A stretch of DNA of 64,000 bases from Bacteroidia bacterium. Its GTDB lineage: Bacteria; Bacteroidota; Bacteroidia; UKL13-3. Location of the stretch: the NCBI GenBank assembly GCA_041675505.1, contig JBAYTR010000010.1, forward strand, positions 67,895-131,894. Reading direction: 5' to 3'. The stretch's first letter is position 1. Each line of letters opens with the position of its first letter. Below the pieces are notes generated by a model. The model saw nothing but the letters and a program-made list of their open reading frames with translations. It made no database searches and had not been told where the DNA came from. Made by a program: the position numbers and the translations under genes. Below, one piece after another: positions 2,352 through 25,228 of the stretch.

Positions 2352-5294
2352 TTAGTCTTCGCAGTGGTAGTTGCGAGGCGGGCGCGAGCGACCTTCGCGG
2401 GCGGGTTCTCCGGCTGCCTGTGCTTCGAGCATTTTTTTAAACAGCCAGTTGCGTAACTCTATGTTTTGTTGGTAGAGTTTCAGGTCTTCTTCTGCATCAA
2501 AATACCGTTTGCCGTCTATCCAGGTTTTTTCTACTTTAGCGTAAATACTCAGGGGGTCGTTGCTCCACAATACCACGTCAGCATCTTTACCTACTTTAAT
2601 ACTCCCTACGCGGTTATCTACGTGCAGCATTTTAGCCGGGTTGAGTGTAACCATTTTCCAGGCTTCTTCTCTGCTCATGTTGCAGTAGCGGATACTCTTG
2701 GCCGCCTCCTGATTAAGTCTGCGACCCATTTCGGCATCATCGCTGTTAATGGCTGTGGTTACTCCGGCTTTGGTAAGTAAGCACGCATTCTGCGGAATGG
2801 CATCAATTACTTCGTATTTGTAGGCCCACCAATCACTAAAGGTGCTGGCCGAGGCTCCGTGTTTTTTCATTTCATCGGCTACTTTGTAACCCTCCAGAAT
2901 GTGTGTGAACGTATTGACCTTAAACCCGAGTGAATCGGCCACGCGCATCAGCATGGAAATTTCAGATTGCACATACGAGTGGCAGGTGATGAATCTTTTT
3001 TTGTTGAGAATTTCATTCAGTGTTTCCATTTCCAAATCGGTACGGAAAGGTGTTTTGTTTTTAACAGCGGCTGATTTGTCGAGCGCATATTGTTTGGCGC
3101 GTGTAAAATCATTCACCATCACCTGCTCTACGCCCATGCGGGTTTGCGGGAACCTGAATGTAGGATCGTTCCAACCTCCGCGTTTTACATTTTCACCTAA
3201 TGCGAATTTGATAAAGCCATCAGCTCCTTCAAATTTCATTTGCTCGGGCAAGGCACCCCAACGCAGTTTAATGAGTTGAGATTGTCCGCCAATGGGGTTG
3301 CAGGAACCGTGCAGCAATTGCGCACCCGTTACCCCACCGGCCAGCTGACGGTAGATGTTGATGTCTTCATTGTCGACCACATCACCTATGCGCACTTCGG
3401 CTGTGTTGCTGTGGGTACATTCATTCACTCCGTTATCAATGGCAATGTGTGAATGTTCGTCAATTATACCGTTGGCCAAATGTTTATTGGTTCCGTCAAG
3501 AGTGGTGTAATTGCTCTTGCCGAAAATGCCGGCAGCATTCAGCTTTTTACCTACCGCAGCAATTTTTCCGTCTTTGATGGCCACATCGGTTTGTTCCAGA
3601 ATACCCTCCACTTCATTGGTCCACACGGTTGTGTTTTGTATGAGTACGTTGTCGTAATTCGGAAGGGTAGTTCTGCCGTAATCACCAAACGGGTAGCTCA
3701 CGCGGAATACGGAATCAACTTTATTTTCTTTGACTTTCTTTTTATCCTCGGGCGCAGCTTTTTTTGTTCCGTTCACTTGTTGCGCCAGGTAAACCAAAGC
3801 AATTTCTTTGGCTTCGGGCAAGGCGGCATCGGTAAGTTCTTTTATCCATCCGGTAACCGACAAGGCGTTTTTCGAACACTGGCAAATGGCAGCAAAACCT
3901 TTGCTTCCCTGCACATATTCCAAAGTGCCTTTGCAACTGTCGTTGCTCAGTTTCAGTTCTACGCTGTTGCCTTTAACCGTAAAAGTTCCGTTGTTACTAA
4001 GGGCAAAAGTTCCCTCCAGCATTTTTTTGTTTTTACCGGGAAGAACGTGCTGCTCACCTTTAATCCAGTGCTCGGTAATTTCAAAATCTTCTTCACCCAA
4101 AGGTGTGGTGGCGATAAAAAAGTTGGCCAGTTTTCCTGCGGCAATGCTGCCGGTTATATCTTCTATTTTGAGTAGGCGTGCCGGTTCAGTACACAAGGCT
4201 TTCACCAGGTCGGTTGCATTCAGGCCGCCTGATTGTACCTTGGCTAAGTTTTTCCAGAAAGTTTCTTTATCCAATCCTTCGGCAGTGAAGGCAAAGGGCA
4301 CGTTGTTTTGTTTGAGTATGGAGGCGTTTTTAGGTGCCATGTACCAATGCAGCAAATCAGCGGTGTTGATGAACTCGGCCATCTCAGCACTTTGTATGTT
4401 GTAGGTTTTCGGAAGTTGTAAAGGCACAATAAATGAGGCTCCGGTTTGTTTCAGTTCAGCGGCCCATTGGTACTCCGTACCGTTGCCTTTTACAATCCAG
4501 TTTTTGTTAAACTCTTTGGCAATTTTTAATGCACGCAAAGCTGATTGTTTGCTTTCCACTTCAAATATCACGGGTAAATTCTGCAGCTGATTAAAACGCT
4601 CCAGGGTGTAGTTGTACTCCAGTTTGTTTCCGCCCGCAGCATACCATTGCGCATCTAAATGTGTTTGACGCAACAAGGCGATTGAACCCATCAATGAAGA
4701 AGGATATTGATTGGGTGAGGTACCCTTATCAAAAGAATAATGCAAGGCCGATTGTTTGCGCAAAACAAGTTCGTTATCGGGTTTATTACCGGGTAACACC
4801 AACGTTGATGCACCGCGCACAATGCCGTCACGCACAAAGGAAGATACACAGCCGTAACCCATTTCGAGCAGTTGTTTCCATTGCTTATCATCGGGTTCAA
4901 AATGTTCAAAGGCATCTACATCGCTGCGGATAGCTTCGTTCCAACCCAGTGCGGCTTTTTTCGGAGCATTGTTTTTATCTGTTTTTTGGTTGATGCCGTA
5001 GGTGCTGAACGGGTCAATAAAAGAAGGATAAATCCACTGGCCTTTTACATCGGTTACTACGGCATCCGTTGGAATAACAACTCCTTTGCCCGCTGCCACA
5101 ATTTTACCGCCACGGATAACCAGTGTATAATCCAATCCTGTAGTTTGTTCATTGAGCTGTATGTTGGCATGGGTAAACGCAAAGCACGTAAGCTTAGGAT
5201 CTTTAACAGTTAACTGTGGAAAGGAGGGTTGAGCAAAAACGAAGACAGGGAAAAGTGCGGTAAACACTACCGCCAGCAGTTTATTTTTTATCAT
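2352..5294 (-). CDS. two-domain amidohydrolase family protein (secreted); probable start at the internal Met giving MIKNKLLAVVF...
   Basis: 992-aa ORF with a signal peptide, HSHIAIDNG metal-binding motif, and amidohydrolase-like segments in both halves. I moved the start to 5294 to remove overlap with the upstream gene. Confidence 0.65.
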   Translation of the reverse strand: MIKNKLLAVVFTALFPVFVFAQPSFPQLTVKDPKLTCFAFTHANIQLNEQTTGLDYTLVIRGGKIVAAGKGVVIPTDAVVTDVKGQWIYPSFIDPFSTYGINQKTDKNNAPKKAALGWNEAIRSDVDAFEHFEPDDKQWKQLLEMGYGCVSSFVRDGIVRGASTLVLPGNKPDNELVLRKQSALHYSFDKGTSPNQYPSSLMGSIALLRQTHLDAQWYAAGGNKLEYNYTLERFNQLQNLPVIFEVESKQSALRALKIAKEFNKNWIVKGNGTEYQWAAELKQTGASFIVPLQLPKTYNIQSAEMAEFINTADLLHWYMAPKNASILKQNNVPFAFTAEGLDKETFWKNLAKVQSGGLNATDLVKALCTEPARLLKIEDITGSIAAGKLANFFIATTPLGEEDFEITEHWIKGEQHVLPGKNKKMLEGTFALSNNGTFTVKGNSVELKLSNDSCKGTLEYVQGSKGFAAICQCSKNALSVTGWIKELTDAALPEAKEIALVYLAQQVNGTKKAAPEDKKKVKENKVDSVFRVSYPFGDYGRTTLPNYDNVLIQNTTVWTNEVEGILEQTDVAIKDGKIAAVGKKLNAAGIFGKSNYTTLDGTNKHLANGIIDEHSHIAIDNGVNECTHSNTAEVRIGDVVDNEDINIYRQLAGGVTGAQLLHGSCNPIGGQSQLIKLRWGALPEQMKFEGADGFIKFALGENVKRGGWNDPTFRFPQTRMGVEQVMVNDFTRAKQYALDKSAAVKNKTPFRTDLEMETLNEILNKKRFITCHSYVQSEISMLMRVADSLGFKVNTFTHILEGYKVADEMKKHGASASTFSDWWAYKYEVIDAIPQNACLLTKAGVTTAINSDDAEMGRRLNQEAAKSIRYCNMSREEAWKMVTLNPAKMLHVDNRVGSIKVGKDADVVLWSNDPLSIYAKVEKTWIDGKRYFDAEEDLKLYQQNIELRNWLFKKMLEAQAAGEPAREGRSRPPRNYHCED

Positions 5295-6651
5295 GTTGTT
5301 CTCTCCACAATTCATTGAATGATTTGGCACTTAGTTCAGGAAACACCCTGCGCTCTCCCCAGCTGCTTTTAAACAACGATTTAATGAGGAAACCTTTAAT
5401 GCTAGGGGCGCGGTTCATTTTTTTGCGATCGAGCATGGCTTTTTTCCAGGCTATCCACATCAGCTTTTCGCTGGTTTTACCATGACCCTCATCTACAAAA
5501 TCTTTTCTGTTGGCCAGCAGTGTTTGGTGTATGGGAATGTTTACCGGGCACACATCGGTACAGGCCCCGCAAAGGGTGGAGGCGTGGCTCAGGTGCTTGA
5601 ATTCTTTGGCACCAAATTGCAACGGACTCACTACTGAGCCGATGGGTCCGATGTTGGTGCTTTCATATCCATGTCCGCCAATGGTTTTAAAAATGGGGCA
5701 CACATTGGAGCAGGCACCGCAACGAATGCATTTTAGCGCTGCCCGTTGTTCCTGTTTTTCGAGTACGTTGGTGCGGCCGTTGTCCAGCAGTATCACATAC
5801 ATTTCAGCAGGTCCGTCTCCTTCGTCCTGAAAACGCGGACCCATAAAAAGAGAGTTGTAAGTCGTGAGGTTTTGTCCGGTACCGTAAGTGGCCAGCATGG
5901 GCAGCAACACTTCCAGATCACCCATTCCCGGAATTATTTTTTCAATACCCGCCAGTACAATGTGTACCGCAGGAGCCGAAGTTCCTACACGCACATTGCC
6001 CTCGTTTTCGGTAATTACCACCGCACCGGTTTCGGCCACCAGAAAGTTGGCCCCTGTAATGCTTACCTGGGCATTGCGTAAATGTGTTTTTATATTGCCG
6101 CAGCCTTTTGCGGTAAGTTGCTCGGCTGTGGTCTCGTGGCTGTTGGGCAGATTAAATAAAGCACCTACCTCTTCCAATGATTTGTGCATGGCCGGTGTTA
6201 CCGGATGAAAAGGAGCTTCGTTGGCCAGTTGAACAATGTATTCGCCCAAATCAGTTTCGTGAACGGCTACCTGTTTTTGTGTAAAGTGTTTTTGCAAACC
6301 AATTTCTTGTGCCGTGGTTGATTTGCTTATGACAATTTCACTGGCTGCATGTTGGGTAACAATGTTTTCAATTTCGCTGAGTGCGGCAACCGCATCGGGA
6401 GCCCAAAGAACCTTCCCGCCCCTTTTGGTAAAGGCGTTTTCAAACTCCAGCAAAAACTTATCTAGGCTTTCAATGGCTCTCCACCGGGAAAAAGAGGCGC
6501 GCTCTTTGGCCAGTTCCAGCTGTTCAAACTGTGTGATTCCCTTGTGGTGTTGTACCCGATAATTGGCCAAAGCAGCATCTATCTTCTGGCGCCTTTCCGC
6601 ATCAAAAGCTGTTTTTTCAGCTAACCGAAGAAAACTTTCCAGATCTGCCAT
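5281..6651 (-). CDS. LutB/LldF-like iron-sulfur protein (LUD domain plus two 4Fe-4S ferredoxin motifs)
   Basis: Two Cys clusters: CIRCGACSNVCP and CGACTDVCP. The overall layout matches lactate-utilisation protein B-type proteins. Confidence 0.7.
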   Translation of the reverse strand: MADLESFLRLAEKTAFDAERRQKIDAALANYRVQHHKGITQFEQLELAKERASFSRWRAIESLDKFLLEFENAFTKRGGKVLWAPDAVAALSEIENIVTQHAASEIVISKSTTAQEIGLQKHFTQKQVAVHETDLGEYIVQLANEAPFHPVTPAMHKSLEEVGALFNLPNSHETTAEQLTAKGCGNIKTHLRNAQVSITGANFLVAETGAVVITENEGNVRVGTSAPAVHIVLAGIEKIIPGMGDLEVLLPMLATYGTGQNLTTYNSLFMGPRFQDEGDGPAEMYVILLDNGRTNVLEKQEQRAALKCIRCGACSNVCPIFKTIGGHGYESTNIGPIGSVVSPLQFGAKEFKHLSHASTLCGACTDVCPVNIPIHQTLLANRKDFVDEGHGKTSEKLMWIAWKKAMLDRKKMNRAPSIKGFLIKSLFKSSWGERRVFPELSAKSFNELWREQHDKK

Positions 6652-8451: not shown

Positions 8452-9763
8452 ACTCCACCGACTTTTTCTTTTTGCACTTCTTCTTTTTTCCTTCGCCTGT
8501 AAAAAAACAGACGAAGGATTTATAGGGGGAGACATTTTGCCCGCAAGTGACAACCTTAACTTTGTGGCAACCGATACATTTTCATTGTTGATGTATACGG
8601 TAAAAGATGATTCAGTACGAACAGACGAACGCTCTGTTAACCCGCTCGGTTTTATACACGACCCCTACTTTGGCCGTACCCAAAGCTCCATTTACACTCA
8701 GATTCGTTTGCCGGAGAACAACCTTAATTTTTCTGCGGTAAAGCTCGACTCCATTGTGCTTACGCTTAAGTACCAGAACAAAACAGCCTCCTACGGAAAC
8801 ACCGCCACTACTCAAACCATCAAGGTGTATGAGTTAAGCAACTCGTTGTACATTGACAGTGTTTATTACTCCAATGCCCGCCCCGCTTATTACCCGCAGG
8901 AAATTGGCAGCTGGACCGGCAAGTTTAACCTTAACGACAGCATTACACTCCAACACGGTAGCAAAACCAGAAAATTACCTCCGCATTTACGCATCAGAAT
9001 AACCAACAATGCCTTTATTGACAAAATAAAAAACGGAGGTACCAGCTTTTCAACCAACGAGGCGTTTATCAACTACATGAAAGGCCTGGCCATTGTGCCG
9101 CACGACTTTGCCATTAACCCCGGTGAAGGAGCCGTAGTGAACATGGATTTGGTGTCAACGGTTTCTAACCTTACCATTTATTACAACGACTCCCTGTACA
9201 AAGACCTGCTCATTAATGAGAACTCCCCGCGCTTAAGCAGTTATGAGCATAACTATTTCGGTACTGCACTTTCTTTGCAACTGGGTTTGAAACAACACCG
9301 CGATACCTGCTACGCACAATCCATGGGTAGTGTAAAAACATTTTTTAAAGTACCCCACATTCTTGACCTGATTAAGAAAAACGGGAACAAAGCCGTAACC
9401 GTTGCTGCAGCTGAACTTACCGTGCCGGTTCTTCCCGGAGCAGGTACAGCGCAATACGGTTTACCGTTGGAGGTTTTCTTTGTTACGGCTGATTCAACGG
9501 GCAAAAACTTCACGTTACCCGGAGGAATTTTAATCGGCTATTCAGGAAAATACAACGCTACTAAAACAGCCATTACAGTTAACCTGAGTTCTTATTTTCA
9601 AAGCATATTGAACGCGTACAAAAAATCAGGCATTGAAAAGGATTACGGCTTGTACATAGTGCCTTCCTATAATTATTCAGGCATGGAGCGAATTGTGTTT
9701 AATACCAATAAATTTGCACCCCTTCCACCGAAACTTAAATTGACCTATAGCGTTATTCAATAG
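8423..9763 (+). CDS. DUF4270-like lipoprotein
   Basis: From the internal start MMPF, the sequence has a hydrophobic leader ending ...FSFAC (lipobox). The ORF-track start at 8387 overlaps the upstream gene and lacks a leader. The position after panC and the short glycogen synthase matches the usual DUF4270 context. Confidence 0.5.
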   Translation: MMPFLSDRTKLHRLFLFALLLFSFACKKTDEGFIGGDILPASDNLNFVATDTFSLLMYTVKDDSVRTDERSVNPLGFIHDPYFGRTQSSIYTQIRLPENNLNFSAVKLDSIVLTLKYQNKTASYGNTATTQTIKVYELSNSLYIDSVYYSNARPAYYPQEIGSWTGKFNLNDSITLQHGSKTRKLPPHLRIRITNNAFIDKIKNGGTSFSTNEAFINYMKGLAIVPHDFAINPGEGAVVNMDLVSTVSNLTIYYNDSLYKDLLINENSPRLSSYEHNYFGTALSLQLGLKQHRDTCYAQSMGSVKTFFKVPHILDLIKKNGNKAVTVAAAELTVPVLPGAGTAQYGLPLEVFFVTADSTGKNFTLPGGILIGYSGKYNATKTAITVNLSSYFQSILNAYKKSGIEKDYGLYIVPSYNYSGMERIVFNTNKFAPLPPKLKLTYSVIQ

Positions 9764-10821
9764 TGGTTATAGTACTTGATAAAAACATTACACGAGAAGA
9801 TGCGGCAGCTATACTGTTGCGCTTAGAGGGTTACGGACTAAAGAATCATGCGGTTCACCTCAACGGGCAATCGGTTATTACCGTTTCCAACTTTCCGGCT
9901 GATTTTGATATCCGCAAAATTCAATTAATTGACGGAGTAAAAGAGGTGGTTGAAGTAAGCGAGCCATATAAACTGGCCAGCAAAAGCTGGAAAAAAGAAC
10001 GCACCTCCTTTAACGTAAACGGAACTCCCGTAGGTACCGATACCATTAACGTAATGGCCGGCCCTTGCGCAGTAGAGTCGGAAAAACAGATTTTTGAGAT
10101 TGCTGAATTTCTTCATCAACAGAACATAAAATTTATTCGCGGTGGAGCTTACAAGCCCCGCACCTCTCCTTACTCTTTTCAGGGTTTAGGATTGGAAGGA
10201 CTCAAAATGTTGAGGGCCGCAGCAGATAAGTACCAACTCAATGTAATTACCGAAGTAATTGATTTGAGCGTACTGGACGAGGTATACAAGTATGCTGATG
10301 TGTTGCAGATAGGCACACGCAATATGCAAAACTATTACTTGCTGGCTGAACTGGGTAAACAAGACAAACCCGTTCTTTTGAAACGAGGCATGCAGGCCAA
10401 AATACCGGAATGGTTGATGGCTGCAGAATACATACTTTCAGGAGGAAATGAGCGCGTTATTTTGTGCGAGCGCGGCATACGTACTTTTGATAACAGCACC
10501 CGCAATACTCTCGACATCGGAGCAATTCCGTTGGTGAAAGAACTGAGTCACCTGCCTGTTTTTGCCGACCCCAGCCACGGCACCGGTATTCGTACCCGTG
10601 TTGAACCACTGGCACTGGCTGCTGTTGCTGCCGGAGCAGATGGTTTACTTATTGAAGTACACAATCACCCCGACCAGGCTCTGTCTGACGGACCTCAATC
10701 CATCTATCCCGATCAGCTGGTGCAGCTCATGAACAAACTCTCACCGTTGGCACAAGTTATCGGCAGAAAGTTAGATTATGAATCGCAAAACAATTATTTT
10801 AGTGCCGAATCTGCGCAGTAG
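9763..10821 (+). CDS. 3-deoxy-7-phosphoheptulonate (DAHP) synthase, KDO8PS-like class with an N-terminal regulatory domain
   Basis: Core ...[14 protein letters not shown]...[21 protein letters not shown]...[13 protein letters not shown]...LLKRG...FADPSHG... matches type I-beta DAHPS/KDO8PS signatures. Confidence 0.8.
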
Positions 10822-14459: not shown

Positions 14460-15242
14460 TTATTTCCATTTCAGAAGTGTCTTTTCAAAAAGATAAATGA
14501 TTCTCGAAAACAAAAGAGCCAAAAGAATTATGCAGATTACAGCAGCCAAAACCAACGAAACATCATAAGTTCCACCAGCTTTAAAAACCCTATGTCCCAA
14601 ACCTTCGTGGGCTGAAATAAATTCGGCAATGAAGGCACCAAGTAAAGCAAAACTAATGTTCAGTTTAAGCGAATTAAAAAGCCAAACCAATGAAGAAGGC
14701 ACGATTAGTTTTGAAAATATCTGCGTCCGTGATGCTCCAAAGGAGTGAAACAGTTTTATTTGTTGAACATCAACTTGTCTTGCACCTTCATAGGATTGAG
14801 TGATTGCAATTACTACTGTTGAAAGTGCAGCCATTATAACCTTTGCATACATACCAGTTCCAAACCACATTATCATCATAGGTGCAATGGAAAAAATTGG
14901 AATTGCTCCAATTGCAATGATGTAAGGTCTTGTCAAGTCAGCAACTCGTTTTGAATACCAAAGGGAAAGTCCGATTGCTGCACCGCAAATGTTGCCAATT
15001 AGAAAACCATAAATCGCTTCCTGTCCTGTAATAAAAATGTCCCTTGGTAAAATACCATTGGAGATGTTTTCAATCAGCGAATGAAAAACTTTGGATGGAG
15101 AAGAAAACAAAAAGAGTTTCTTTTCAGTAGTTGAAATTACAAACTGCCATAACAGCAAGAAAACTGTTAATGGCAACAAACCCAAAATGATACTTATGAT
15201 TTTTCTTTTCATTGTTCGTCTTGCTTTGGAAGTGATTGCCAC
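14460..15242 (-). CDS. ABC transporter permease, NitT/TauT (SsuC/TauC-like) family
   Basis: 260 aa, 6 predicted TM helices, EAA-like loop region. Overlaps the upstream ATPase gene by 34 nt. Confidence 0.8.
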   Translation of the reverse strand: MAITSKARRTMKRKIISIILGLLPLTVFLLLWQFVISTTEKKLFLFSSPSKVFHSLIENISNGILPRDIFITGQEAIYGFLIGNICGAAIGLSLWYSKRVADLTRPYIIAIGAIPIFSIAPMMIMWFGTGMYAKVIMAALSTVVIAITQSYEGARQVDVQQIKLFHSFGASRTQIFSKLIVPSSLVWLFNSLKLNISFALLGAFIAEFISAHEGLGHRVFKAGGTYDVSLVLAAVICIILLALLFSRIIYLFEKTLLKWK

Positions 15243-15970
15243 ATTTCAGTAAAGTATTTAGAAAACTTTTGGTCTTGCTTAACTGAAATTGGACTTCTCT
15301 TTTCTACATCAAAAGTTATCTGTAATTCCTTGAATGTTTCGTTTGGCTTGTGATTAAAAATTATTGTCCTATCGCTTACTGTTATTGCTTCATCAATGTC
15401 GTGAGTAATCAGTAAAACAGTTTTGTGATTCTCTTTTGACAAAGCATGTATTTGTGCTTGTAGTTCAAGCCTCGTGTTGTAATCAATTGCTGAAAATGGT
15501 TCGTCCAAAAGCATTATTTCAGAATCTAACATCAGTGTTCTGATAAGAGCAACTTTTTGTCTTTCACCGCCTGAAAGTTGTGAGGGATAACTATGAACCA
15601 AATTTGAGATGCCAAAGCGTTTCAAATACTGCATTACATTTTCTTTTGTTGAGGAATTTATTTTGCCTTGAATTTCAATACCGACAATTATGTTTTGATA
15701 AACTGTTTTCCAAGGGAGCAATAAATCCTTTTGCATCATGTATGCTATTGCAGTTCTCCTGTCTGCAATGTGGTCAAGTTTTACTTCTCCGCTATATTCA
15801 TTGTCAAGTCCGATTATCAAGTTGAAAAGAGTTGTTTTCCCACAACCATTTGGCCCCAAAATGGAAACAAACTCCCCTGAACGAATAGTGAGATTGAGGT
15901 TTTTAAAAACCTCAACGTTACCCGTTGGAGTGCTAAATGACTTGGTTATGTTTTTTAACTCAATGTTCAT
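15209..15970 (-). CDS. ABC transporter ATP-binding protein (NitT/TauT family)
   Basis: Walker A GPNGCGKTT, signature LSGGERQK, Walker B LLDEPFSALD-like. Confidence 0.85.
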   Translation of the reverse strand: MNIELKNITKSFSTPTGNVEVFKNLNLTIRSGEFVSILGPNGCGKTTLFNLIIGLDNEYSGEVKLDHIADRRTAIAYMMQKDLLLPWKTVYQNIIVGIEIQGKINSSTKENVMQYLKRFGISNLVHSYPSQLSGGERQKVALIRTLMLDSEIMLLDEPFSAIDYNTRLELQAQIHALSKENHKTVLLITHDIDEAITVSDRTIIFNHKPNETFKELQITFDVEKRSPISVKQDQKFSKYFTEMWQSLPKQDEQ

Positions 15971-17514
15971 TAGTGCTTGACAATTTCCTTTTGTGCATTT
16001 GTAACTCTTGATTTTGCAAATGTCGCTTTAGAATAAATTTGATTAAATATTTTATAGCAATATGTTTCTTCTTTATCTCTCAAGGAAAATTGAGAATTGT
16101 TTTTTTGAATGTTTTGATATTCTTCTTCACTCAAATTGTTGTTTGCAAATTCATGTAGCAAACCCTTTCCTCTTTCAACGCCTCCAATTCCAGCCCCTTC
16201 CATCAAAGTCATTTTCTCTCTCGAATAAATGTAGTCAGGCAATAAATCTTTAAATGCTTCTCTCAAAACAAACTTTGTTGTTGTATCTCCTGTTTTTGTC
16301 TTTGCCACTTTTAAAGACGGATGAATGCTCAAAGCATATTCAACTAAAGTTCTGTCAAGAAAGGGTTCACGAACTTCAACGGCATATTTCATTCCTGTTT
16401 TGTCAACTCTCAAAAGTTGTGTCCTGTATAAATCGTTTAGAAGATTTTTAATTTCATTTTGAAATTCTGTTTCATCAGGAAGGGAAAGAAAATCACCATA
16501 GCCGCCAAATATTTCATCGCTGCCCTCGCCACACAAAACAATTTTGAAACCTTTGTCGTGTGCTAACTCTGCCAATTTCATTGAAAGTAAAGAGCCACGA
16601 ATAGGATTTGGTTCAAATGTCTCAATGGAATAAATCACATCAGGAACATTTTGAAGCAAATTTTCTTTGCTTGTTTTAATATGATGAAACTTCAAATTCA
16701 AATCATTGCAAAGTCGCTTTGCATAAATCACGTCTTCGCCTGAATCTTCACCGACAATTAAAGCTGTAACATCATTGTGATAACTGCAACACAATAAATG
16801 AACTATTGAACTGTCAATGCCACCACTTAAAAAAGTAGCAATAGGCAAATCTGTTTCAACTCTTTTCTTTACAGCCAATTCAACAAGTTCACGAACATTA
16901 TTTGTAATTGTGCTTACTGAATCAGTATTCCATTTTGTGCTTGGCGTTTTATAATACTGGAAAACTCCTTCATTGGTTATGTAGTGTGCTGGTTTAAGTT
17001 CTTCAAATGTTTCTACTTCCAAATCAGTAAAGGATTTCATTTCAGAAGAAATATAAACTACATTCTCACTCTTGCAGTAGAAGAATGGTTTCACTCCAAA
17101 AAAATCTCTTGCTCCGAAAAACTTATTTTGAACGGAATCATAAATTAGAAATGCAAACATTCCTTCTAACTGCTGCAAGAAATTTATTCCGTGTTCTTCA
17201 TAAAGATGAACCAAAACTTCTGTGTCGCAATCTGAAATAAACTTGTGTCCTTTCATTTGCAATTCTGATTTCAAATTTTTGTAGTTGTAAATCTCACCGT
17301 TAAAAACAACTCCTATTGTTTTGTTCTCATTGAAAAAAGGTTGTGTGCCATTTGGTCTGTCAACTATTTTAAGGCGAACACTTCCTAAGATTGAATTTCC
17401 TATTTGAACTTGTTTAGGTGCAGTATCTCCCCGATGCTCAATTTTTTTGAGCATAAACTCCATTTCTGTTTTGCCTTTTGGAGTAGGATTAATAATTGCT
17501 GCGATACCACACAT
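15970..17514 (-). CDS. asparagine synthase (glutamine-hydrolysing) family amidotransferase
   Basis: MCGIAAI Ntn-Cys, PP-loop SGGIDSS, 514 aa. One-nt overlap with the ABC ATPase start. Confidence 0.8.
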   Translation of the reverse strand: MCGIAAIINPTPKGKTEMEFMLKKIEHRGDTAPKQVQIGNSILGSVRLKIVDRPNGTQPFFNENKTIGVVFNGEIYNYKNLKSELQMKGHKFISDCDTEVLVHLYEEHGINFLQQLEGMFAFLIYDSVQNKFFGARDFFGVKPFFYCKSENVVYISSEMKSFTDLEVETFEELKPAHYITNEGVFQYYKTPSTKWNTDSVSTITNNVRELVELAVKKRVETDLPIATFLSGGIDSSIVHLLCCSYHNDVTALIVGEDSGEDVIYAKRLCNDLNLKFHHIKTSKENLLQNVPDVIYSIETFEPNPIRGSLLSMKLAELAHDKGFKIVLCGEGSDEIFGGYGDFLSLPDETEFQNEIKNLLNDLYRTQLLRVDKTGMKYAVEVREPFLDRTLVEYALSIHPSLKVAKTKTGDTTTKFVLREAFKDLLPDYIYSREKMTLMEGAGIGGVERGKGLLHEFANNNLSEEEYQNIQKNNSQFSLRDKEETYCYKIFNQIYSKATFAKSRVTNAQKEIVKH

Positions 17515-17518
17515 TTTA

Positions 17519-18322
17519 TTATTTTTGTTCTTCTTTATTAAAATTTGAAAACCAAGGTCTGCTTCTTATTCCTTTACGAAAAGAGTAAATCTGTAAACTC
17601 GGAAGGTCGGGGGCAATCAATTCTTTTTCTTCATCCGATGTGTATGTGAGAAAAACATTTTGAAAAAAATTCTTTTCTACATACTGCTTTTCAATTTGAT
17701 TCATTGTAATGTAAGCATATGCCGATTCATCAGTTGAATTAAAACGCAAGTCGCCAAAAATTTGATTGTTTGAATATCTGTAAGAATGTTTACCTGCTGA
17801 TTTTTTTAAAAGTTCAAATGATTCTCTACCTTTTAAAAACTCTGGTATGTTATGACTTCCATTCTCATTTATAATTGCATTGATTAATGCATTCATGTCT
17901 TTTAAGTGATGTGATTTTGCAAAAGGCATTAGCACTTCGGACATGAGAACATGTGTGTAATTGAATTCATTTACAACGTTTCTTATCCCTTTGAAATAGC
18001 TTTTGTAATCTTCGGGCTTATAGCCATTAAGCATTGCATGTGTGTCAGTAAAAATTAATGTTAGCTGAGCATCCAATTTGTAATGCTTTTCAATAACTCG
18101 CAGAAAACCGAAAAGATTTAGCAACGCATCAAAGTCGTATTTGTCGGGGTACTTTTTATCGGATGCGCCCCAATATGAAATGAAACGAATATATTTCTTG
18201 TTATGCTTTACTCTTTCATTAACATACTTATCTAACTCCGCAATTTGTTTCTTGCGAACCTCAATCTTTTTTGCTGCTAAAAAAGAGCCGATTGTTTTTC
18301 CGTTTCGCAAATTGCTATTCAT
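17519..18322 (-). CDS. hypothetical 267-aa protein, enzyme-like, no family recognised
   Basis: AT-rich ORF inside the coupled operon. Motifs ISYWGASDKK and LTLIFTDTHAML loosely resemble the catalytic-core motifs of tRNA-dependent cyclodipeptide synthases, but key CDPS residues do not align, so it is left unassigned. Confidence 0.55.
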   Translation of the reverse strand: MNSNLRNGKTIGSFLAAKKIEVRKKQIAELDKYVNERVKHNKKYIRFISYWGASDKKYPDKYDFDALLNLFGFLRVIEKHYKLDAQLTLIFTDTHAMLNGYKPEDYKSYFKGIRNVVNEFNYTHVLMSEVLMPFAKSHHLKDMNALINAIINENGSHNIPEFLKGRESFELLKKSAGKHSYRYSNNQIFGDLRFNSTDESAYAYITMNQIEKQYVEKNFFQNVFLTYTSDEEKELIAPDLPSLQIYSFRKGIRSRPWFSNFNKEEQK

Positions 18323-20189
18323 TGCGATAAAAATATTTGCTTTCGTGTTTTAGTTTAAACAATTCCCGTGAAGACAAAAAAACAATAACTAAACAAATTA
18401 AGAAACAATAAAAAATATAATTGCCATATTTAATTGTATGTAAAACTTCTTTGTATTCTATAGGGTCGCTATTCGGAACAACTTCTTGCCTTGCAAATTC
18501 ATGTTTCAATTCATCTAATTTTGGAGTTTTAGGATGTAAAATGTGAAACATACTTGATGTAATCTCAAGTAAAATAAATAACGAGCCTATAAAGTAAAGT
18601 AACGTGGGTTTTCTTACATGCTTCCATAATGAACTTTCTATAAACAGTCGAAAGTTTTCAACTTTATTAGTGAACAGTTTTAAGAGATATAAAAAGGGCA
18701 ACAATGGTGTTAAAAATATTCGCCAACCTGCCCACTTTTTTGTGTGTAACGTTTTTCTTTCAAGTTCAAAATAATGCTTTTCATTTTGACGATATTCAGC
18801 TAACAAATCATCAGCTACGAACAAACTGTAATCAATAGTTTGAGGAACAGGTATGCCCTCAGCCCTATATCGCAAAAGCGTTAATTCTTTCAAATCATCT
18901 TTAATCGGATTAGTTTTTGAGTAATACAAATTGCCAATATCTCTCCACTCTCTTAATCTATCTACATAGTATTTAAGAATTTCTTCAAGTGAAAATTTCT
19001 CTTTTTTATTATTGATAAGAAACTGGATATAACTTTTAATAGTTTCATCTGCGATTAAGAGGTTAAGCAATTCGTCTTGGGTATCATCATCATATTTGAG
19101 TTTTGTTTTCAGAAAGTGAATTAAGCCCGTTGTATCGCTTTTCTTTAGATACGAATGAATTCTGTGTAAATTTTTATCAATGCCGTAGAGCAACCCTTTA
19201 AGTTTTTCTGAATTTTCAGGTGCATTATTACCTAAGATGCCCGTAAACATGAAACTTTGATCGTTGTCATACGCTAAGTTTTCTAATTCAATAATTTTTT
19301 TGTTTGCTTCTCCATTATGCTTATCAAGTAAGAAATCAATACTTATAAAATCACATGAGAATGAGACAGAATTATTGCAATAGTCATCGTTATCTACTTC
19401 TTCGTCAATGGTTCCATTATTTTTATATGTTTTTTTACTTACTTTACGAAGTTCATATCCAAAATCTTTTCTTTCTTCTACCAATGTAGATGTAGATGTT
19501 TTGTATTGCTCATAATAGATATGACCAATACAAAATCCTGTTGAAGGAGTATCATAACAGATGATTGATTGAGTAATATTTTCTTTTCCGTATTGAGACG
19601 GAAAATTTTGTGGATTCTTATATAATCTACCTAAGTCATTAGACGAACTAGTTAAATCTCCACTTCCTACAGCCAGAAAAGCAATTTTTGAAACTAATCC
19701 ACCAATAACCTTTGTATTGGTTTTTAATATTTTCTCTTTAAAGAGGTTTACCCCATTCTCTTTAAAGACTAAATTGTTACTATTGTCAACATCTAAACAT
19801 TGTGAAAGATTGAGATTAAACTCTTTATTACAAATATCTTTCTTTGTTTTAATGTCAAGCAAGTCCTGAAACTTTTTAAGTTCTGCTTGTAGCTTGGTGG
19901 CATCGCAATGGTTCAAATAGATAAGATGAGATGGGTCGCAAATGGCTGCGTCTGCTAAACCAAGCAAAACGGAAAAGGTTGCAAATCCATCACCCTTTAA
20001 TTTCTTGCTCTGGTCAAACCTGAAATCATTTTTTGTTCCAATTATAACTACTTCTAATTCCGAAAATGGTGTGTCATGGAAATCATTGCCATAGTATGCA
20101 ACATAAAATGGAAGGTATAATACCGTGTCAGTTGATACGGCAATTTCAAGTTTGTCTTTTGTTCGTATGGAAGAAAATCCTGAATCCAT
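18315..20189 (-). CDS. NMT1/THI5/SsuA-like substrate-binding domain (N-terminal, no signal peptide) fused to a C-terminal region with about 3 TM helices
   Basis: N-terminal ...LYLPFYVAYYGN...GFATFSVLLGLADAAICDPSHL... parallels the ...YLPFYIAQEKGFF...AQFGIGDPVFTAISREKG region of the adjacent canonical SBP. C-terminal hydrophobic segments WAGWRIFLTPLLPFLYLL, LLYFIGSLFILLEI and IFYCFLICLVIVFL. Confidence 0.6.
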   Translation of the reverse strand: MDSGFSSIRTKDKLEIAVSTDTVLYLPFYVAYYGNDFHDTPFSELEVVIIGTKNDFRFDQSKKLKGDGFATFSVLLGLADAAICDPSHLIYLNHCDATKLQAELKKFQDLLDIKTKKDICNKEFNLNLSQCLDVDNSNNLVFKENGVNLFKEKILKTNTKVIGGLVSKIAFLAVGSGDLTSSSNDLGRLYKNPQNFPSQYGKENITQSIICYDTPSTGFCIGHIYYEQYKTSTSTLVEERKDFGYELRKVSKKTYKNNGTIDEEVDNDDYCNNSVSFSCDFISIDFLLDKHNGEANKKIIELENLAYDNDQSFMFTGILGNNAPENSEKLKGLLYGIDKNLHRIHSYLKKSDTTGLIHFLKTKLKYDDDTQDELLNLLIADETIKSYIQFLINNKKEKFSLEEILKYYVDRLREWRDIGNLYYSKTNPIKDDLKELTLLRYRAEGIPVPQTIDYSLFVADDLLAEYRQNEKHYFELERKTLHTKKWAGWRIFLTPLLPFLYLLKLFTNKVENFRLFIESSLWKHVRKPTLLYFIGSLFILLEITSSMFHILHPKTPKLDELKHEFARQEVVPNSDPIEYKEVLHTIKYGNYIFYCFLICLVIVFLSSRELFKLKHESKYFYRNE

Positions 20190-20191
20190 AT

Positions 20192-21205
20192 TTAATTTGT
20201 CTTGGTATCTGAAATAGATTTTTCGGCAAAGGAATTATCTACTGCATCTGATGTTGGTTTCATTTCCTTCATGTCGCCTATATCAACTCTTACTTGTATC
20301 GCTTTCTGCCAAGCTTCATCACTCATTACAGCATGGTCTGGAATTGTTTTATCTGCTACCATTCTTTTTACAGCATTTGCAACAACTGCTTTGTCAAGGT
20401 TGGGGAAAAGTTTTGCTGCAATTTCTGCCGTTCCTGCTTCATCTGTGTGGCAATACTGTAATGCCTTTTCAATTGCGTTTACAAATTTTTGAACAGTTTC
20501 CTTATTGGCGTTTATGTATTCCTCTGTCGTTGTTAAGCCAGTGAAAGCAAATCTTCCATAAAACTGCGGTGAGGAGTAAACAACTTTGTAACCTTTACTT
20601 TCAGCTATTGATGTTCCTGGTTCTAAGTCCATCGCAATATCGGCACTTCCATTTTCAAGTAAAGCCAACTGTGAACCAATTGGGGCTTGAACAATGATTG
20701 TGTTTTTTAATAAATCTCCTCCTTTCATGAGTGTCTTTTTCATCAAAGCGTAATTTGTTGACGGGTCGGGGAATGTTCCAACTTTCAAACCAGCCAAATC
20801 ACCAGGCTGTTCTATGGTTTTGATGTTATCCTTGTTTGTTACACCCCAAATTGTTACTCCGTCAACGATGGAACCAATTACTTTTCCTTTTGCTCCTTTC
20901 TCTCGTGATATGGCAGTGAATACAGGGTCGCCAATTCCAAATTGTGCTTCGCCTTTCAAAACGGTTGCAAAAACCTGGTCGTCATTACCTGAAAACTTTA
21001 CAGTAATTTCAAGTCCTTCGTCTTTGAAAAAACCCTTCTCCTGTGCAATGTAGAAAGGTAGGTAAATTAGATACTTCTCTTGTCCCCACTGCGCTACTAT
21101 TACTTTGGTGACTTCGGTGGTTTTTGGCTTTTCAGTGTTGCATGAATTGCATCCTCCCAAAATGATTGTGAGAACCAGTAATGCTGCTAAAACTATTTTA
21201 TTCAT
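20192..21205 (-). CDS. ABC transporter substrate-binding lipoprotein, NMT1/THI5-like (SsuA/TauA family)
   Basis: Lipobox LTIILGGC followed by an SBP fold with NMT1-like motifs. Confidence 0.8.
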   Translation of the reverse strand: MNKIVLAALLVLTIILGGCNSCNTEKPKTTEVTKVIVAQWGQEKYLIYLPFYIAQEKGFFKDEGLEITVKFSGNDDQVFATVLKGEAQFGIGDPVFTAISREKGAKGKVIGSIVDGVTIWGVTNKDNIKTIEQPGDLAGLKVGTFPDPSTNYALMKKTLMKGGDLLKNTIIVQAPIGSQLALLENGSADIAMDLEPGTSIAESKGYKVVYSSPQFYGRFAFTGLTTTEEYINANKETVQKFVNAIEKALQYCHTDEAGTAEIAAKLFPNLDKAVVANAVKRMVADKTIPDHAVMSDEAWQKAIQVRVDIGDMKEMKPTSDAVDNSFAEKSISDTKTN

Positions 21206-21261: not shown

Positions 21262-22788
21262 TCAACAATTGCTTCCCTTCTCAAAAAGTGTTTTCCAAAG
21301 GAATGTATCAAACAATTGTGCTAAGTTGTAAGTCAAAAACAAAAATAAAGTTCCTCCCAATAGTATTGCCAAAAACCATTTCCAAAGGTTGCTGTAAATT
21401 TTGAGTTTGCCATCAATGAATGCTACATCAGCATTGAATTCTTTATCATTATTAAGGATTCTCTGAATGTCTTCTTTTTCTAAAAGGTCAGTGTAGCGTT
21501 CTTTCAAATTTGTGTAGCTGTCAACGAATCTTTTGCGTTGCTCTTTCACTTCCCACTTTGCTACTAAGTAATAAAGGAATGAGCCGAACAAAAAAACAAT
21601 TGAAAGAACTGCTGTGTCAAGTGTAAACACATTTACAAAATCTCCATTGCCCAAAACTTTTATTGCGATTGCAGAAAAGTAAAAAGTGATTAGCGCCAAA
21701 GAACTTTTTTGAAAACCACTTGCAAATGTTTCAATGACTTTGTTTGCTCTGTTGTTGAAGTCAAGCAACTGGTCAGAAATTTTATTTCTGATTTCAATGT
21801 ATTGCTTGATGTTCTGCTTCTCGTAAACTTTGTAACTTGATTGAATAGATTGAAATGGATGCCCTTTCAATTCTAATTCACCACTATTTTCAAAGTGAAG
21901 TGAAATAATGTTTCTGGCTAAACCAATTTTATCATTGAGGTTTCCGCCACAATAAACCCAATTGTATATATTGAAATATTCTTTCGTTCCATCTATCGGC
22001 AATGCTTTTACATCAACTTTTCCTTTGATTGATTTATAACCGTTGATTTTAAATTCAAGTTCGTTGGCTTTTAGCGAAGTAATGTCAAACAAATAAACAA
22101 CGGAAAGCACAACAGCATAATGATTGAAAAGCAAACACAGCTTGCTGTGTTTTGCATTTTCAATTTGCAACTGAAAATCATCAGGCGTTAAGTTGTGTTC
22201 TTCAATGTTGGTGTAATTACTTGCTGAAAGAATGCTATCAAGGCGTTTATGCCTGTCAGCAAATGTTTGAGTAGGTGTGGTAGCACCTATTTGTGTAAAG
22301 AAAATATTTGCTGTATTGAATGGCTTGTCAAGATTCAACACTTTGAAGTTTACAAAAGGTGTGTTTGATAAAACACGATTGAAAACCGCATACGCTTCTG
22401 CTACTGACAAACTTTCAAGTGTTGCTGTGAAGATTTCTAAATCATATATAGAAATATTGTTTGAAATATTTCCTTTAGTGATTTTGAAGGTTGCTGTGAT
22501 TGGTTCGCCTTCCTGATGCAAATATTCCTTATCAAGTTCAGTTTTGAAATCGGTAAAATTTGAACTGGTTGAATAAAATGATTTTGGGTCGGCTTCTCCA
22601 AATTTGATTGTGAATGTTAATTGGTCGTTAGGCTCTAAAAAGTTGTAGGCGGTTTGAATGCTTGCAACCTCTGTCGATGAAAAGTTTGTTGCTGACAATT
22701 CACAAATAAATTCTTTGTCATTCTCTGAAACAGTTGTTTGAGAATAAGTAGAGAAAAAAGAGTGAATGAATTTATCAGCAAATTGCAT
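21262..22788 (-). CDS. hypothetical membrane-anchored protein: about 350-aa soluble N-terminal domain plus about 3 C-terminal TM helices
   Basis: 508 aa. TM segments LALITFYFSAIAIKVL, AVLSIVFLFGSFLYYLVA and WKWFLAILLGGTLFLFLTY. One-nt overlap with the upstream gene. Confidence 0.5.
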   Translation of the reverse strand: MQFADKFIHSFFSTYSQTTVSENDKEFICELSATNFSSTEVASIQTAYNFLEPNDQLTFTIKFGEADPKSFYSTSSNFTDFKTELDKEYLHQEGEPITATFKITKGNISNNISIYDLEIFTATLESLSVAEAYAVFNRVLSNTPFVNFKVLNLDKPFNTANIFFTQIGATTPTQTFADRHKRLDSILSASNYTNIEEHNLTPDDFQLQIENAKHSKLCLLFNHYAVVLSVVYLFDITSLKANELEFKINGYKSIKGKVDVKALPIDGTKEYFNIYNWVYCGGNLNDKIGLARNIISLHFENSGELELKGHPFQSIQSSYKVYEKQNIKQYIEIRNKISDQLLDFNNRANKVIETFASGFQKSSLALITFYFSAIAIKVLGNGDFVNVFTLDTAVLSIVFLFGSFLYYLVAKWEVKEQRKRFVDSYTNLKERYTDLLEKEDIQRILNNDKEFNADVAFIDGKLKIYSNLWKWFLAILLGGTLFLFLTYNLAQLFDTFLWKTLFEKGSNC

Positions 22789-23825
22789 TAGCTATTGCCG
22801 TTTTGTCTGTTGCTGAAATATTGATAGCCTTGTTCCGATTTGATTTTCACATATCTTGTTCCGTCTGCATCTTTTTCCGCTGTGATTATTGTTTCAAGGT
22901 TCGGAATATCTTCTTTCAAGTGCAAATCAATTTGGCTTGTCAAGGGGATAGTGTTTAGAAATTTTGCCCTAATCTTTGCCTTTACAATCGTGAACTGTTC
23001 GTCAAAAGGTGTTCTTGGTTTTGATGGCAATTGTCGGATTTGAGTTTTGATTTCTGCAACATCAAGGTTGGAATCGAAGGGAGTGTAGTTTCCAATTGCT
23101 GTGTCCAAATACTCTTGCATGTCAAAATTGTCGTTGGCTCTGAAATAGCGAACGGTGCTATTACGCAAATGCAAATAATCTTGTGGGTGTTTCTTTTTCA
23201 GTTTTGTAAATATGCCTTTGTCAATTGCTTCAAAAGCATTTTCTGTATTGTCCTCGTCTGAATAAACTTTGGTGAGTTCTAAAAAATCTTTCCACCAATA
23301 ATGAGAAAGGTTTGGATTGGTGTCATACACCAAAACATTAGTTACAGTTTGGTCGCTGTTTAGCGAACAAACAAATGCTTTGAAAACCTTTTTCTTTAAT
23401 GGAAGTCCTCTTGAAATAGTAAAATTTATTTCGTTTAAGAAATCGCTGTGGTCTGCTTTACAGATTACAAGTTTGTTGACGCTGTTTTCTGTTACCAATG
23501 CTTGAACAACAATTCCCTTTTGAATCTCAACTCCAAGTTTCAACATTTTTGCTTGTGCCTCTTGCTCTTTCTTCAAAAGTCGTGTTACTATTGTTGATGC
23601 AATTGCAGGAAATTCTTCACCTGCAATAATTTTCGTAATCTGTCCTCTTACTTCTGTTGTGTCGCTGTCAAACTTGAAGTTTCTACCACTGCTGCCTGTC
23701 GTAATGAGATTTACCAGTCCTTGCAAGTATGTGTTGAAGTCAGCACCATAAATTGATTGCTCAATTGATTCAACCGCTTGTTCATGAATGTCAACCTTAA
23801 ATATTTGTATGGCTGTTATGTCCAT
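22788..23825 (-). CDS. hypothetical soluble protein, first gene of the AT-rich operon
   Basis: The ORF-track start at 23891 adds 22 residues. The Met at 23825 (MDITAIQIFKV...) has an AT-rich upstream region typical of Bacteroidota starts. Faint resemblance to NA37/YejK-type nucleoid-associated proteins; unverified. Confidence 0.5.
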   Translation of the reverse strand: MDITAIQIFKVDIHEQAVESIEQSIYGADFNTYLQGLVNLITTGSSGRNFKFDSDTTEVRGQITKIIAGEEFPAIASTIVTRLLKKEQEAQAKMLKLGVEIQKGIVVQALVTENSVNKLVICKADHSDFLNEINFTISRGLPLKKKVFKAFVCSLNSDQTVTNVLVYDTNPNLSHYWWKDFLELTKVYSDEDNTENAFEAIDKGIFTKLKKKHPQDYLHLRNSTVRYFRANDNFDMQEYLDTAIGNYTPFDSNLDVAEIKTQIRQLPSKPRTPFDEQFTIVKAKIRAKFLNTIPLTSQIDLHLKEDIPNLETIITAEKDADGTRYVKIKSEQGYQYFSNRQNGNS

Positions 23826-24304
23826 GTTGTATATTTTAAAATGTGAAAAATTGTTGGTTAACGGGTGCTGATAAAGCGTTGGCGATTGCACACTTTTGAT
23901 TTCGCCTTTGGGTTGGCTTGTACGTGAGCTGCAAATGCAAATGTGTACTGGTGTTTTTTGTTTTCCAGCTGAAGCGTTTACAATTCAAGGAGGTGTCGTT
24001 GGTGTCAAGTTTTGTCAAAAAGTTCATTTTTCATCTGTCAGTTTAATGTTAACACTGTTGCCATAGGGTTTCCGGCAGCTTTTTTATATGCGAAGGTTTG
24101 CCTGGTTTTGTAAATATATCAATTTGCTCATAACTCTTCAAAAAGGGGGTTGTTTTTTGAATACTTTGTGATGTAAATCGCTTTGAAAATCTTGGCCAAT
24201 TAGGCCACGGGAATTTGCAAGACAGGTGAACAGGTTAGGTTGCATAGCATATTGGTTTTCAACGGCAAATTAGAAGGTTTTTTATTACTGTGCAAATTTA
24301 TTAT

Positions 24305-24536: not shown

Positions 24537-24627
24537 CACGGGCTCTCATCACACAGGCTAAGCTTCGCCCTCGCAGTGACGTTGGTTTTGACAGTGACGT
24601 TCTTTTTTGAGTGCCTTTGAAGTAATG

Positions 24628-25035
24628 TTACTTCATCTCCTGGCACAACTCAATCAGTACTCCGTTGGTGGCTTTGGGGTGCAGGAAACAAATGAGTTTA
24701 TTATCAGCACCGCGCTTGGGTGTTTCATGGATAAATTGAAATCCGGCTGCTTCTAAACGGGTTATTTCTGCTTCAATGTCTTCTACATCAAATGCAATGT
24801 GGTGTATGCCCTCGCCTTTTTTCTCAATAAATTTTGCAATGGCACTGTCGGCTGAGGTGGCTTGCAGCAACTCTACTTTGCTTTCTCCGGTTTTAAAAAA
24901 AGCGGTGATTACGTGTTCGCTTTCCACGCCCTCTTCTTTGTAGCAGGGTGTTCCCAAAAGTGCGGCAAACAGGCTTTTGGATGCTTCTATATCTTTAACG
25001 GCTATGCCCAGGTGTTCAATCTTGCGTAAATTCAT
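24628..25035 (-). CDS. methylmalonyl-CoA epimerase (VOC/glyoxalase fold)
   Basis: Sequence from the internal Met: MNLRKIEHLGIAVKDIEASK...GEGIHHIAFDVEDIEA... The N-terminal 12 residues of the track ORF are probably not translated. Confidence 0.75.
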   Translation of the reverse strand: MNLRKIEHLGIAVKDIEASKSLFAALLGTPCYKEEGVESEHVITAFFKTGESKVELLQATSADSAIAKFIEKKGEGIHHIAFDVEDIEAEITRLEAAGFQFIHETPKRGADNKLICFLHPKATNGVLIELCQEMK

Positions 25036-25228
25036 GCAGCAAAGTAACCTCAAAAAATAAAAACCCGCCAAGGTTTACTTTCCCCGGCAGGGAAGAAGCC
25101 CGTAAACGCTCAGTAGTTAAGAGGTAAAATAACCGTTCCGTCTACAGGATTTAACCTGAAAACAGGGCAGGAGTGGATATTATTTAGAATTGTTCTAACT
25201 TTGCATACATTTTGAATAGCACGAACGC

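Follow-up and report, generated by a model that had tools for sequence, protein, structure and literature searches.

A predicted cytoplasmic, membrane-tethered paralogue of a substrate-binding protein as a constant member of a rare ABC import cassette of the NitT/TauT type

In a 64,000-nucleotide stretch of a Bacteroidia bacterium genome (GenBank assembly GCA_041675505.1, contig JBAYTR010000010.1, forward-strand positions 67,895 to 131,894; hereafter the window, whose own numbering is used for all coordinates below unless a locus is named), a minus-strand gene at 18315-20189 encodes a protein in which a domain resembling a substrate-binding protein (SBP) is followed by a helical stalk and two C-terminal transmembrane (TM) helices. 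We find that a rare ATP-binding cassette (ABC) import cassette of the NitT/TauT type has this protein, here called the target, as its fourth constant member. We propose that the target serves as a cytoplasmic, membrane-tethered receptor subunit of the importer, a proposal that we consider to stand at about even chances; the anatomy on which it draws, namely the fold, the missing export signal, the two TM helices, the paralogy to an SBP and the linkage to an importer, is much more secure than the receptor reading itself. The gene and its parts are as follows.

18315..20189, minus strand: target gene, an open reading frame (ORF) of 624 amino acids, with an SBP-like domain, helical stalk and C-terminal TM hairpin
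19221..20162, minus strand: two-lobe type II binding-protein fold (NMT1/SsuA/NrtA class), residues ~10-323
18744..19220, minus strand: all-helical region between lobes and membrane, residues 324-482, from the secondary structure of the AlphaFold2 (AF2) model
18675..18737, minus strand: subgroup-specific hydrophobic stretch, residues 485-505, K/R-rich on both flanks, with a predicted local distance difference test score (pLDDT) of about 50
18537..18608, minus strand: conserved TM helix a (LLYFIGSLFILLEITSSMFHIL), residues 528-551, from hydropathy and an AF2 helix at 528-551
18354..18428, minus strand: conserved TM helix b, residues 588-612, with hydropathy up to 2.08 and an AF2 helix at 588-613
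18318..18353, minus strand: basic tail, predicted to be cytoplasmic, residues 613-624, ending in the conserved KYFYRNE motif

An AF2 model built on an alignment of 15 homologues (mean pLDDT 77, predicted template modelling score 0.77) gives the N-terminal half of the target a two-lobe type II periplasmic-binding-protein fold, with a helical insertion in lobe 1 (residues ~95-158), and resolves the stalk into helices at 324-349, 353-363, 371-378, 382-393, 401-416, 430-444 and 464-482. Stalk positions Y335, L378/A380/D381, L412, Y422 and R440 are conserved in the family. An earlier sequence-only reading of this DNA had described a helical linker of about 150 residues, and the predicted helices from 324 to 482 bear it out; structure prediction of the full protein, which that reading had suggested as a check, recovers the SBP-like fold, which standard sequence models do not. 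Indeed, the target had no usable match in Pfam, NCBIfam, PADLOC or PDB sequences (the last searched with both the single sequence and a profile), and the NMT1 and NMT1_2 models (PF09084 and PF13379) left it unmatched even at E <= 1. The nearest solved relative of both the target and the adjacent SBP is 3qsl.

The target begins with MDSGFSSIRTKDK in the ORF translation, and the stop codon of the SBP gene lies 2 nt ahead of its ATG in the ORF map. This leaves no room to lengthen the ORF upstream, and an overlooked signal peptide is thereby excluded. No N-terminal hydrophobic segment was found in any of the 32 full-length family members, many of which start their first beta-strand 3-5 residues after the initiator Met, and none of the signal peptide, lipobox or N-terminal anchor that mark a canonical SBP was found in the target or in these 32 members. 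The hydrophilic N-terminus first noted by eye therefore holds for the family as well as for the window copy.

At the other end of the protein, the sequence-only reading had counted about three hydrophobic helices, of which two are retained here as conserved TM helices and the third is not. Both helices are kept by every family member, and helix b was traced in each of the 32 full-length ones. Helix a carries the polar residues E542, S545 and H549 within the membrane span, and these, together with G535 and F538, are invariant in the close family. The tail is likewise constrained, with Y621 and R622 invariant in the close family and a (K)Y(V/F)YR tail in most distant members. The stretch at 485-505, by comparison, is absent or too short in family members P0009-P0012 and in distant members, and is probably an interfacial segment rather than a conserved TM helix. 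We reject a three-TM topology because most relatives lack this first hydrophobic stretch and basic residues flank it at either end.

We base our topology call on hydropathy, on the positive-inside rule and on fusions to other domains. Averaged over the family, the number of Lys plus Arg per 15 residues is 3.0 before helix a, 1.27 in the inter-helix loop and 3.9 in the tail, a distribution that points to an N-in/C-in orientation of the hairpin. Independent support for cytoplasmic placement comes from relatives in which the SBP-like domain is fused to radical S-adenosylmethionine (radical-SAM) or AAA modules, both of which are cytoplasmic workers. From topology prediction and fusions together, the cytoplasmic location of the SBP-like domain is a well-supported prediction. 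An SBP fold on the cytoplasmic side with a C-terminal anchor, which had been flagged from the outset as foreign to normal ABC-importer architecture, thus finds support, as a prediction, in the AF2 model and the charge pattern.

These observations also bear on the simplest alternative, that the target is an ordinary extracytoplasmic SBP, merely tethered, whose export signal was overlooked. Tethered SBPs are common in Gram-positive bacteria and archaea, and the fold is an SBP fold. However, a hydrophobic N-terminal segment is seen in 0 of 32 members and the ORF is closed upstream, so that an N-terminal domain of ~480 residues would need to cross the membrane signal-less; the charge pattern predicts N-in/C-in, homologous domains are fused to radical-SAM and AAA domains, and the cassette already includes a canonical lipoprotein SBP. 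We regard this alternative as effectively excluded.

That canonical SBP is encoded immediately upstream of the target.

20192..21205, minus strand: canonical NMT1-type lipoprotein SBP, extracytoplasmic paralogue of the target (Pfam NMT1, E 2.8e-30)

Its identification as a canonical lipoprotein, already made from the sequence alone, is confirmed by the Pfam match and by an N-terminus with the sequence ...ILGGC; NCBIfam, like Pfam, places it with the NMT1/SsuA-like proteins, and its best PDB sequence match is 3qsl (1e-13). Compared directly, the target and this SBP give a marginal pairwise BLASTP alignment (26% identity over residues 23-202, E 8e-4); profile-profile comparison of the target family with the cassette SBPs gives an unconvincing 17% probability, and a search of 1.84 billion representative proteins with the target-family profile retrieved no canonical SBP. 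The connection runs instead through intermediates, the SBP-like parts of signal-peptide-less partner proteins from related cassettes (alignment A5). In hhalign comparisons these join the target family (A1) at 96.9% (E 1.4e-10, 233 columns) and the true SBPs (A3) at 98.7% (E 2.5e-16), and two of the intermediate partner proteins clear the Pfam NMT1 or NMT1_2 thresholds. Through these links the target and the SBP are homologous, with a common ancestry demonstrable by sequence.

When the two families are aligned jointly, 25 columns prove conserved in the target family as well as in the true SBPs, and 15 of these have the same residue on either side, including (target/SBP) Y25/Y48, P27/P50, D67/D75, D85/D93, PST215-217/148-150, G244/G177, D280/D189 and G317/G223. 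Given the general features of the fold, the motifs conserved in both families would correspond to the cleft-lining ones of such binding proteins. Judged on these alignments, the target and the SBP next to it are paralogues that have drifted far apart, a genuine but ancient relationship. The earlier claim of shared NMT1/THI5/SsuA-type motifs was thus right as to the correspondence, although the two proteins are too diverged for Pfam or direct profile comparison to register it, and the paralogy drawn from those motifs is supported by way of the intermediates. The accompanying suggestion of duplication inside the island does not survive: the pair of SBP and paralogue recurs across subfamily loci and is kept in distant lineages, including a metagenome-assembled genome (MAG) from Planctomycetes, and the two proteins are now only about 20-26% identical, which rules out a recent in-island event.

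The linkage of the target to an importer is seen across its family, which is rare: 15 close homologues were found among 5.8 billion sequences, 39 representatives at the profile level among 1.84 billion proteins and, in a scan by two short patterns only, two Bacteroidota MAGs with members among 185,579 species-representative genomes. The order SBP, target, PvcA-like enzyme, AsnB-like enzyme, ATPase, permease is found in the window and in eight related loci (L001, L002, L004, L005, L008, L014, L019 and L021). Loci L011 and L012 have no PvcA-like gene, and L009 and L010 are minimal, with the SBP-like, target, ATPase and permease genes only and both enzymes gone. ATPase and permease genes are present in the window and in all of L001-L014, L019 and L021, and in every non-orphan locus examined the target gene is found next to the SBP, ATPase and permease genes or in between them. 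Since the ATPase, permease and SBP are constant while the enzymes vary, the invariant partners of the target are importer parts, not enzymes.

A broader view comes from the subfamily of the cassette SBP, here denoted AQWGQEKYLIYLPFY, for which a search with that SBP returned > 120 members at 48% identity or above. A signal-peptide-less SBP-like partner is present in every locus of this subfamily with enough flanking sequence, though its architecture varies. Among 64 ordinary NMT1-type loci used as a control, 10 have a second SBP-like ORF, and nine of these ten have signal-peptide-like N-termini. Only one second copy in the control has no signal peptide (L044, 12448-14103, 551 aa). Judged on its length and on the start of its sequence, it seems to be an ATPase of the NrtC kind that carries an SBP-like regulatory domain, and would represent the known architecture that we take as precedent below.

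The architectures of the partner proteins are diverse. At L017 (4893-6974), from the Planctomycetes MAG, and L023 (5816-7906), from an unassigned metagenome contig, the SBP-like protein has an N-terminal radical-SAM domain with a CxxxCxxC motif (the Pfam Radical_SAM model is cleared in L023), C-terminal TM helices and no signal peptide; the next gene encodes a protein resembling class II seryl-tRNA synthetases or amino-acid:carrier-protein ligases, which replaces the PvcA-like and AsnB-like pair. At L031 (2131-4155 and 5752-7008) the SBP-like domain is fused to a C-terminal AAA ATPase domain without a TM helix, and a separate radical-SAM gene follows the permease. Three further variants (L028, 1796-3205; L029, 3532-4992; L027, 2742-4310) have two or three N-terminal TM helices and then the SBP-like domain, and their loop charges, judged by eye, suggest that the domain is again cytoplasmic.

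Two other loci are irregular. At L018 (3075-4273; L024 is identical in sequence) the partner gene is short and high in GC and falls into two overlapping ORFs of 147 and 255 aa, through either a frameshift or an assembly error; the gene order is also unusual, in that the AsnB-like gene follows the permease. The family also includes a degenerate orphan, P0067 (L015/L016, 10001-11497), which has lost the greater part of its second lobe, stands outside any cassette and is seen on 19 contigs, perhaps because it has been domesticated or is decaying.

To our knowledge, cytoplasmic copies of a transporter's binding protein are known so far only as domains fused to the NrtC and CmpC ATPases. The target may be a second solution of this kind. 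In the model that we favor, its N-in/C-in hairpin would hold the SBP-like domain at the inner face of the membrane, with the stalk between, where, next to the transporter, it would serve as a receptor whose ligand is either the imported compound or what enzymes make from it. The receptor could then gate transport, as the SBP-like domain of the cyanobacterial NrtC/CmpC ATPases does, or it could hand the compound to the cassette enzymes. The enzyme-free minimal cassette favors gating and the radical-SAM fusions favor hand-off. What the gene neighbourhood shows is a tie between the target and the core of the transporter; that the target binds a ligand, touches the transporter and has a regulatory or hand-off output is what we infer beyond that, as is any signalling or effector role of the helices.

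The closest precedent is the Nrt/Cmp regulatory domain. In NrtC this domain shares ~30% identity with NrtA; it is a cytoplasmic nitrate binder that helps lock the transporter (PMC10945777). In CmpC it keeps the ATPase domains locked as long as nitrate is not bound (PMC13287603). Regulation by PII is the only heading under which a 2023 review on the regulation of transporters lists the Nrt system (PMC10710835). Like the regulatory domains of NrtABCD and CmpABCD, the target is cytoplasmic (by our prediction), has an SBP fold and an extra all-helical subdomain, and is homologous to the SBP of its own system. Unlike them, it is a separate polypeptide with its own TM hairpin beside a plain ATPase of 253 aa, it is only ~20-26% identical to its SBP and invisible to Pfam, and its cassette carries enzymes and is mobile.

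Other binding-protein-fold systems are more remote. The target shares with canonical SBPs of the NMT1/SsuA/TauA/ThiY type (3qsl, 6ssy, 3ix1) the two-lobe type II fold, an operon with an ATPase and a permease, and a set of motifs (Y-x-P after strand 1, GDP, PST, D and FTG), but it differs from them in having no signal peptide or lipobox, ~300 extra C-terminal residues and the helical insertion in lobe 1, and in failing the Pfam NMT1 model. A binding-protein fold covalently tied to TM helices is also found in OpuA/GlnPQ permease fusions, BvgS-type kinases and GluR0. In those proteins the binding domain faces outside and comes after a signal or TM segment, whereas in the target it comes ahead of the TM helices and, by prediction, faces the cytoplasm. 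We found no description of the target architecture or of the cassette in the literature, our coverage of which was incomplete.

The NrtC/CmpC domains let an importer read the level of a metabolite inside the cell, and the target family suggests the same idea cast as a free-standing, tethered subunit. If the target gates transport or channels a compound to the enzymes, it would widen the known range of control of ABC importers from inside the cell.

Several observations weigh against this receptor proposal. The target family has invariant residues (K168, C279, D21, D55 and E246) without counterpart in true SBPs, so its ligand or chemistry may differ from that of the SBP. No cassette protein is less conserved than the target (31-57% identical to the window copy) and none more so than the SBP (55-84%), and such fast divergence would be unexpected if both bound the same ligand in the same way. 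As the target is separate and membrane-anchored, while the NrtC/CmpC regulatory domain is fused to its ATPase, the analogy between them is architectural only. Finally, the islands rich in defence and mobile genes in which the cassettes lie fit a role in conflict as well as a metabolic one.

The first of these points recalls an alternative in which the target is a membrane-anchored enzyme, its binding-protein fold having been recruited for catalysis as in THI5, MqnA/MqnD and DszB; together with the PvcA-like and AsnB-like proteins it would carry out one step of a short pathway that acts on the imported compound. THI5 (HMP-P synthase), MqnA/MqnD and DszB are among the best structural matches of the target and share with it an NMT1/THI5-class fold and, on our prediction, a cytoplasmic location; enzymes are present in most cassettes, and in some relatives the SBP-like domain is joined to a radical-SAM one. 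The family-invariant polar residues K168, C279-D280, E246, D21 and D55, absent from true SBPs, also point this way. THI5, MqnA/MqnD and DszB themselves, unlike the target, are soluble, unanchored and not encoded as partners of ABC importers, and their sequence identity to it, only 7-13%, was too low to align a catalytic motif. Against a catalytic role, C279 and K168 are not retained in the intermediate relatives, the best-conserved positions are those common to non-catalytic SBPs, the target evolves faster than any other cassette protein, and the minimal cassettes L009 and L010 keep the target but no enzymes. We therefore consider a catalytic target unlikely.

The rapid divergence and the genomic setting lead to another alternative, in which the target is a sensor-effector in anti-phage or inter-microbial conflict: the domain would sense an imported or cassette-made molecule, and the TM hairpin would oligomerise to damage the membrane. 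We think this quite unlikely, and hold the version for the relatives, with the fused radical-SAM or AAA module as the output instead, to be just as doubtful. Across loci, the cassettes lie near Kiwa KwaA/KwaB, Schlafen/AlbA_2, SLFN-g3 helicase, AAA_15, toxin-antitoxin and Vsr/Dcm genes and transposases, and their low-GC or mobile islands, one of them with a tRNA and an integrase fragment, adjoin defence-type genes. The constant sensor domain with swapped modules (C-terminal TM, N-terminal TM, radical SAM, AAA) and the polar E/S/H residues conserved within helix a also fit this alternative. On the other side, the target, SBP, PvcA-like and AsnB-like proteins had no match in PADLOC-DB 2.0, the invariant partners form a complete and ordinary-looking ABC importer, and the TM helices may stand at the one end of the protein or at the other, a pattern that looks like tethering rather than a specific pore.

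In its broadest form, the cassette as a whole would be an undescribed conflict or defence module in which the importer supplies or salvages a specific small molecule and the fast-evolving SBP paralogue senses it inside the cell, an outside chance in our estimation; that its outputs (TM hairpin, radical SAM, AAA ATPase, and the enzymes resembling aminoacyl-tRNA synthetases (aaRS) and AsnB) are interchangeable is similarly improbable. If true, it would constitute an SBP-based system of intracellular small-molecule sensing on mobile islands. Under the favored receptor proposal as under this one, the cassette is tractable, being small, mobile and strictly organised, and its constant defence-rich setting would also be compatible with a role in microbial conflict.

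The remaining cassette genes in the window lie downstream of the target; all six minus-strand genes, counting the SBP and the target, are tightly packed or overlapping, in operon-like fashion.

17519..18322, minus strand: PvcA/DIT1-like enzyme, 267 aa, with a class I aaRS / cyclodipeptide-synthase-like fold and an 8-nt overlap with the target stop
15970..17514, minus strand: AsnB-like glutamine-dependent amidotransferase (Pfam GATase_7 and Asn_synthase)
15209..15970, minus strand: ABC ATPase, 253 aa, ABC_tran only, without a regulatory domain (Pfam ABC_tran 9e-33)
14460..15242, minus strand: ABC importer permease, BPD_transp_1, SsuC/TauC-like (Pfam 3.3e-28; NCBIfam SaoP/SsuC/TauC-like)

The AsnB-like protein keeps the N-terminal Cys (MCGI) and the PP-loop SGGIDSS (SGGxDS); it scores 354 bits against TIGR01536 (cut-off 267) and falls below the cut-off of the AsnB equivalog NF006949. 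The nearest NCBIfam models of the ATPase are of SaoA, taurine, sulfonate and nitrate types, and the matches of ATPase and permease alike point to the NitT/TauT type. Judging from the ORF translation and homologue spacing, the true permease start is probably the ATG at 15212, which gives a 4-nt overlap with the ATPase stop. The chemistry of the cassette seems to be an ATP-dependent activation, amidation or aminoacyl-type transfer onto some compound. As a clue to the ligand, a riboswitch was sought, and no Rfam family was found near any of 18 cassettes, nor did any other hint of the ligand emerge. One extra in-cassette gene, with a weak DUF5919 match, occurs in each of L014 and L021. The positions noted for L014, with its extra gene and the neighbours described below, are 4480-5948 and 9091-9975; that for L021 is 4786-5562.

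In the window, the cassette lies within a low-GC stretch of ~10 kb (roughly 14.0-24.0 kb), where G+C is 32-36% against 43-47% in the flanks. A search for island borders found neither a tRNA in the window nor flanking direct or inverted repeats. In L019 the cassette comes after a tRNA and an integrase Arm-DNA-binding fragment, and in L014 it stands beside Kiwa (KwaA/KwaB), a ThiF/SAMP2-like cluster and transposases.

Upstream of the window cassette and still inside the low-GC island, two overlapping minus-strand genes occupy 21262-23891. The first (367 aa) has a weak match to the NA37 nucleoid-associated protein (E 1.7e-4), and the second (508 aa) has C-terminal hydrophobic helices and faint SLATT-like matches (PADLOC RTasSLATT, E 0.005). 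They are ruled out as cassette parts, being unrelated to the genes at the same position in L004 and absent elsewhere, and look like a separate, possibly defence-type module. Farther along, a short tandem direct repeat at 24574-24607 (CAGTGACGTTGGTTTT / CAGTGACGTTCTTTTT) sits just beyond the 3' end of a glyoxalase-like gene (24628-25071, minus strand).

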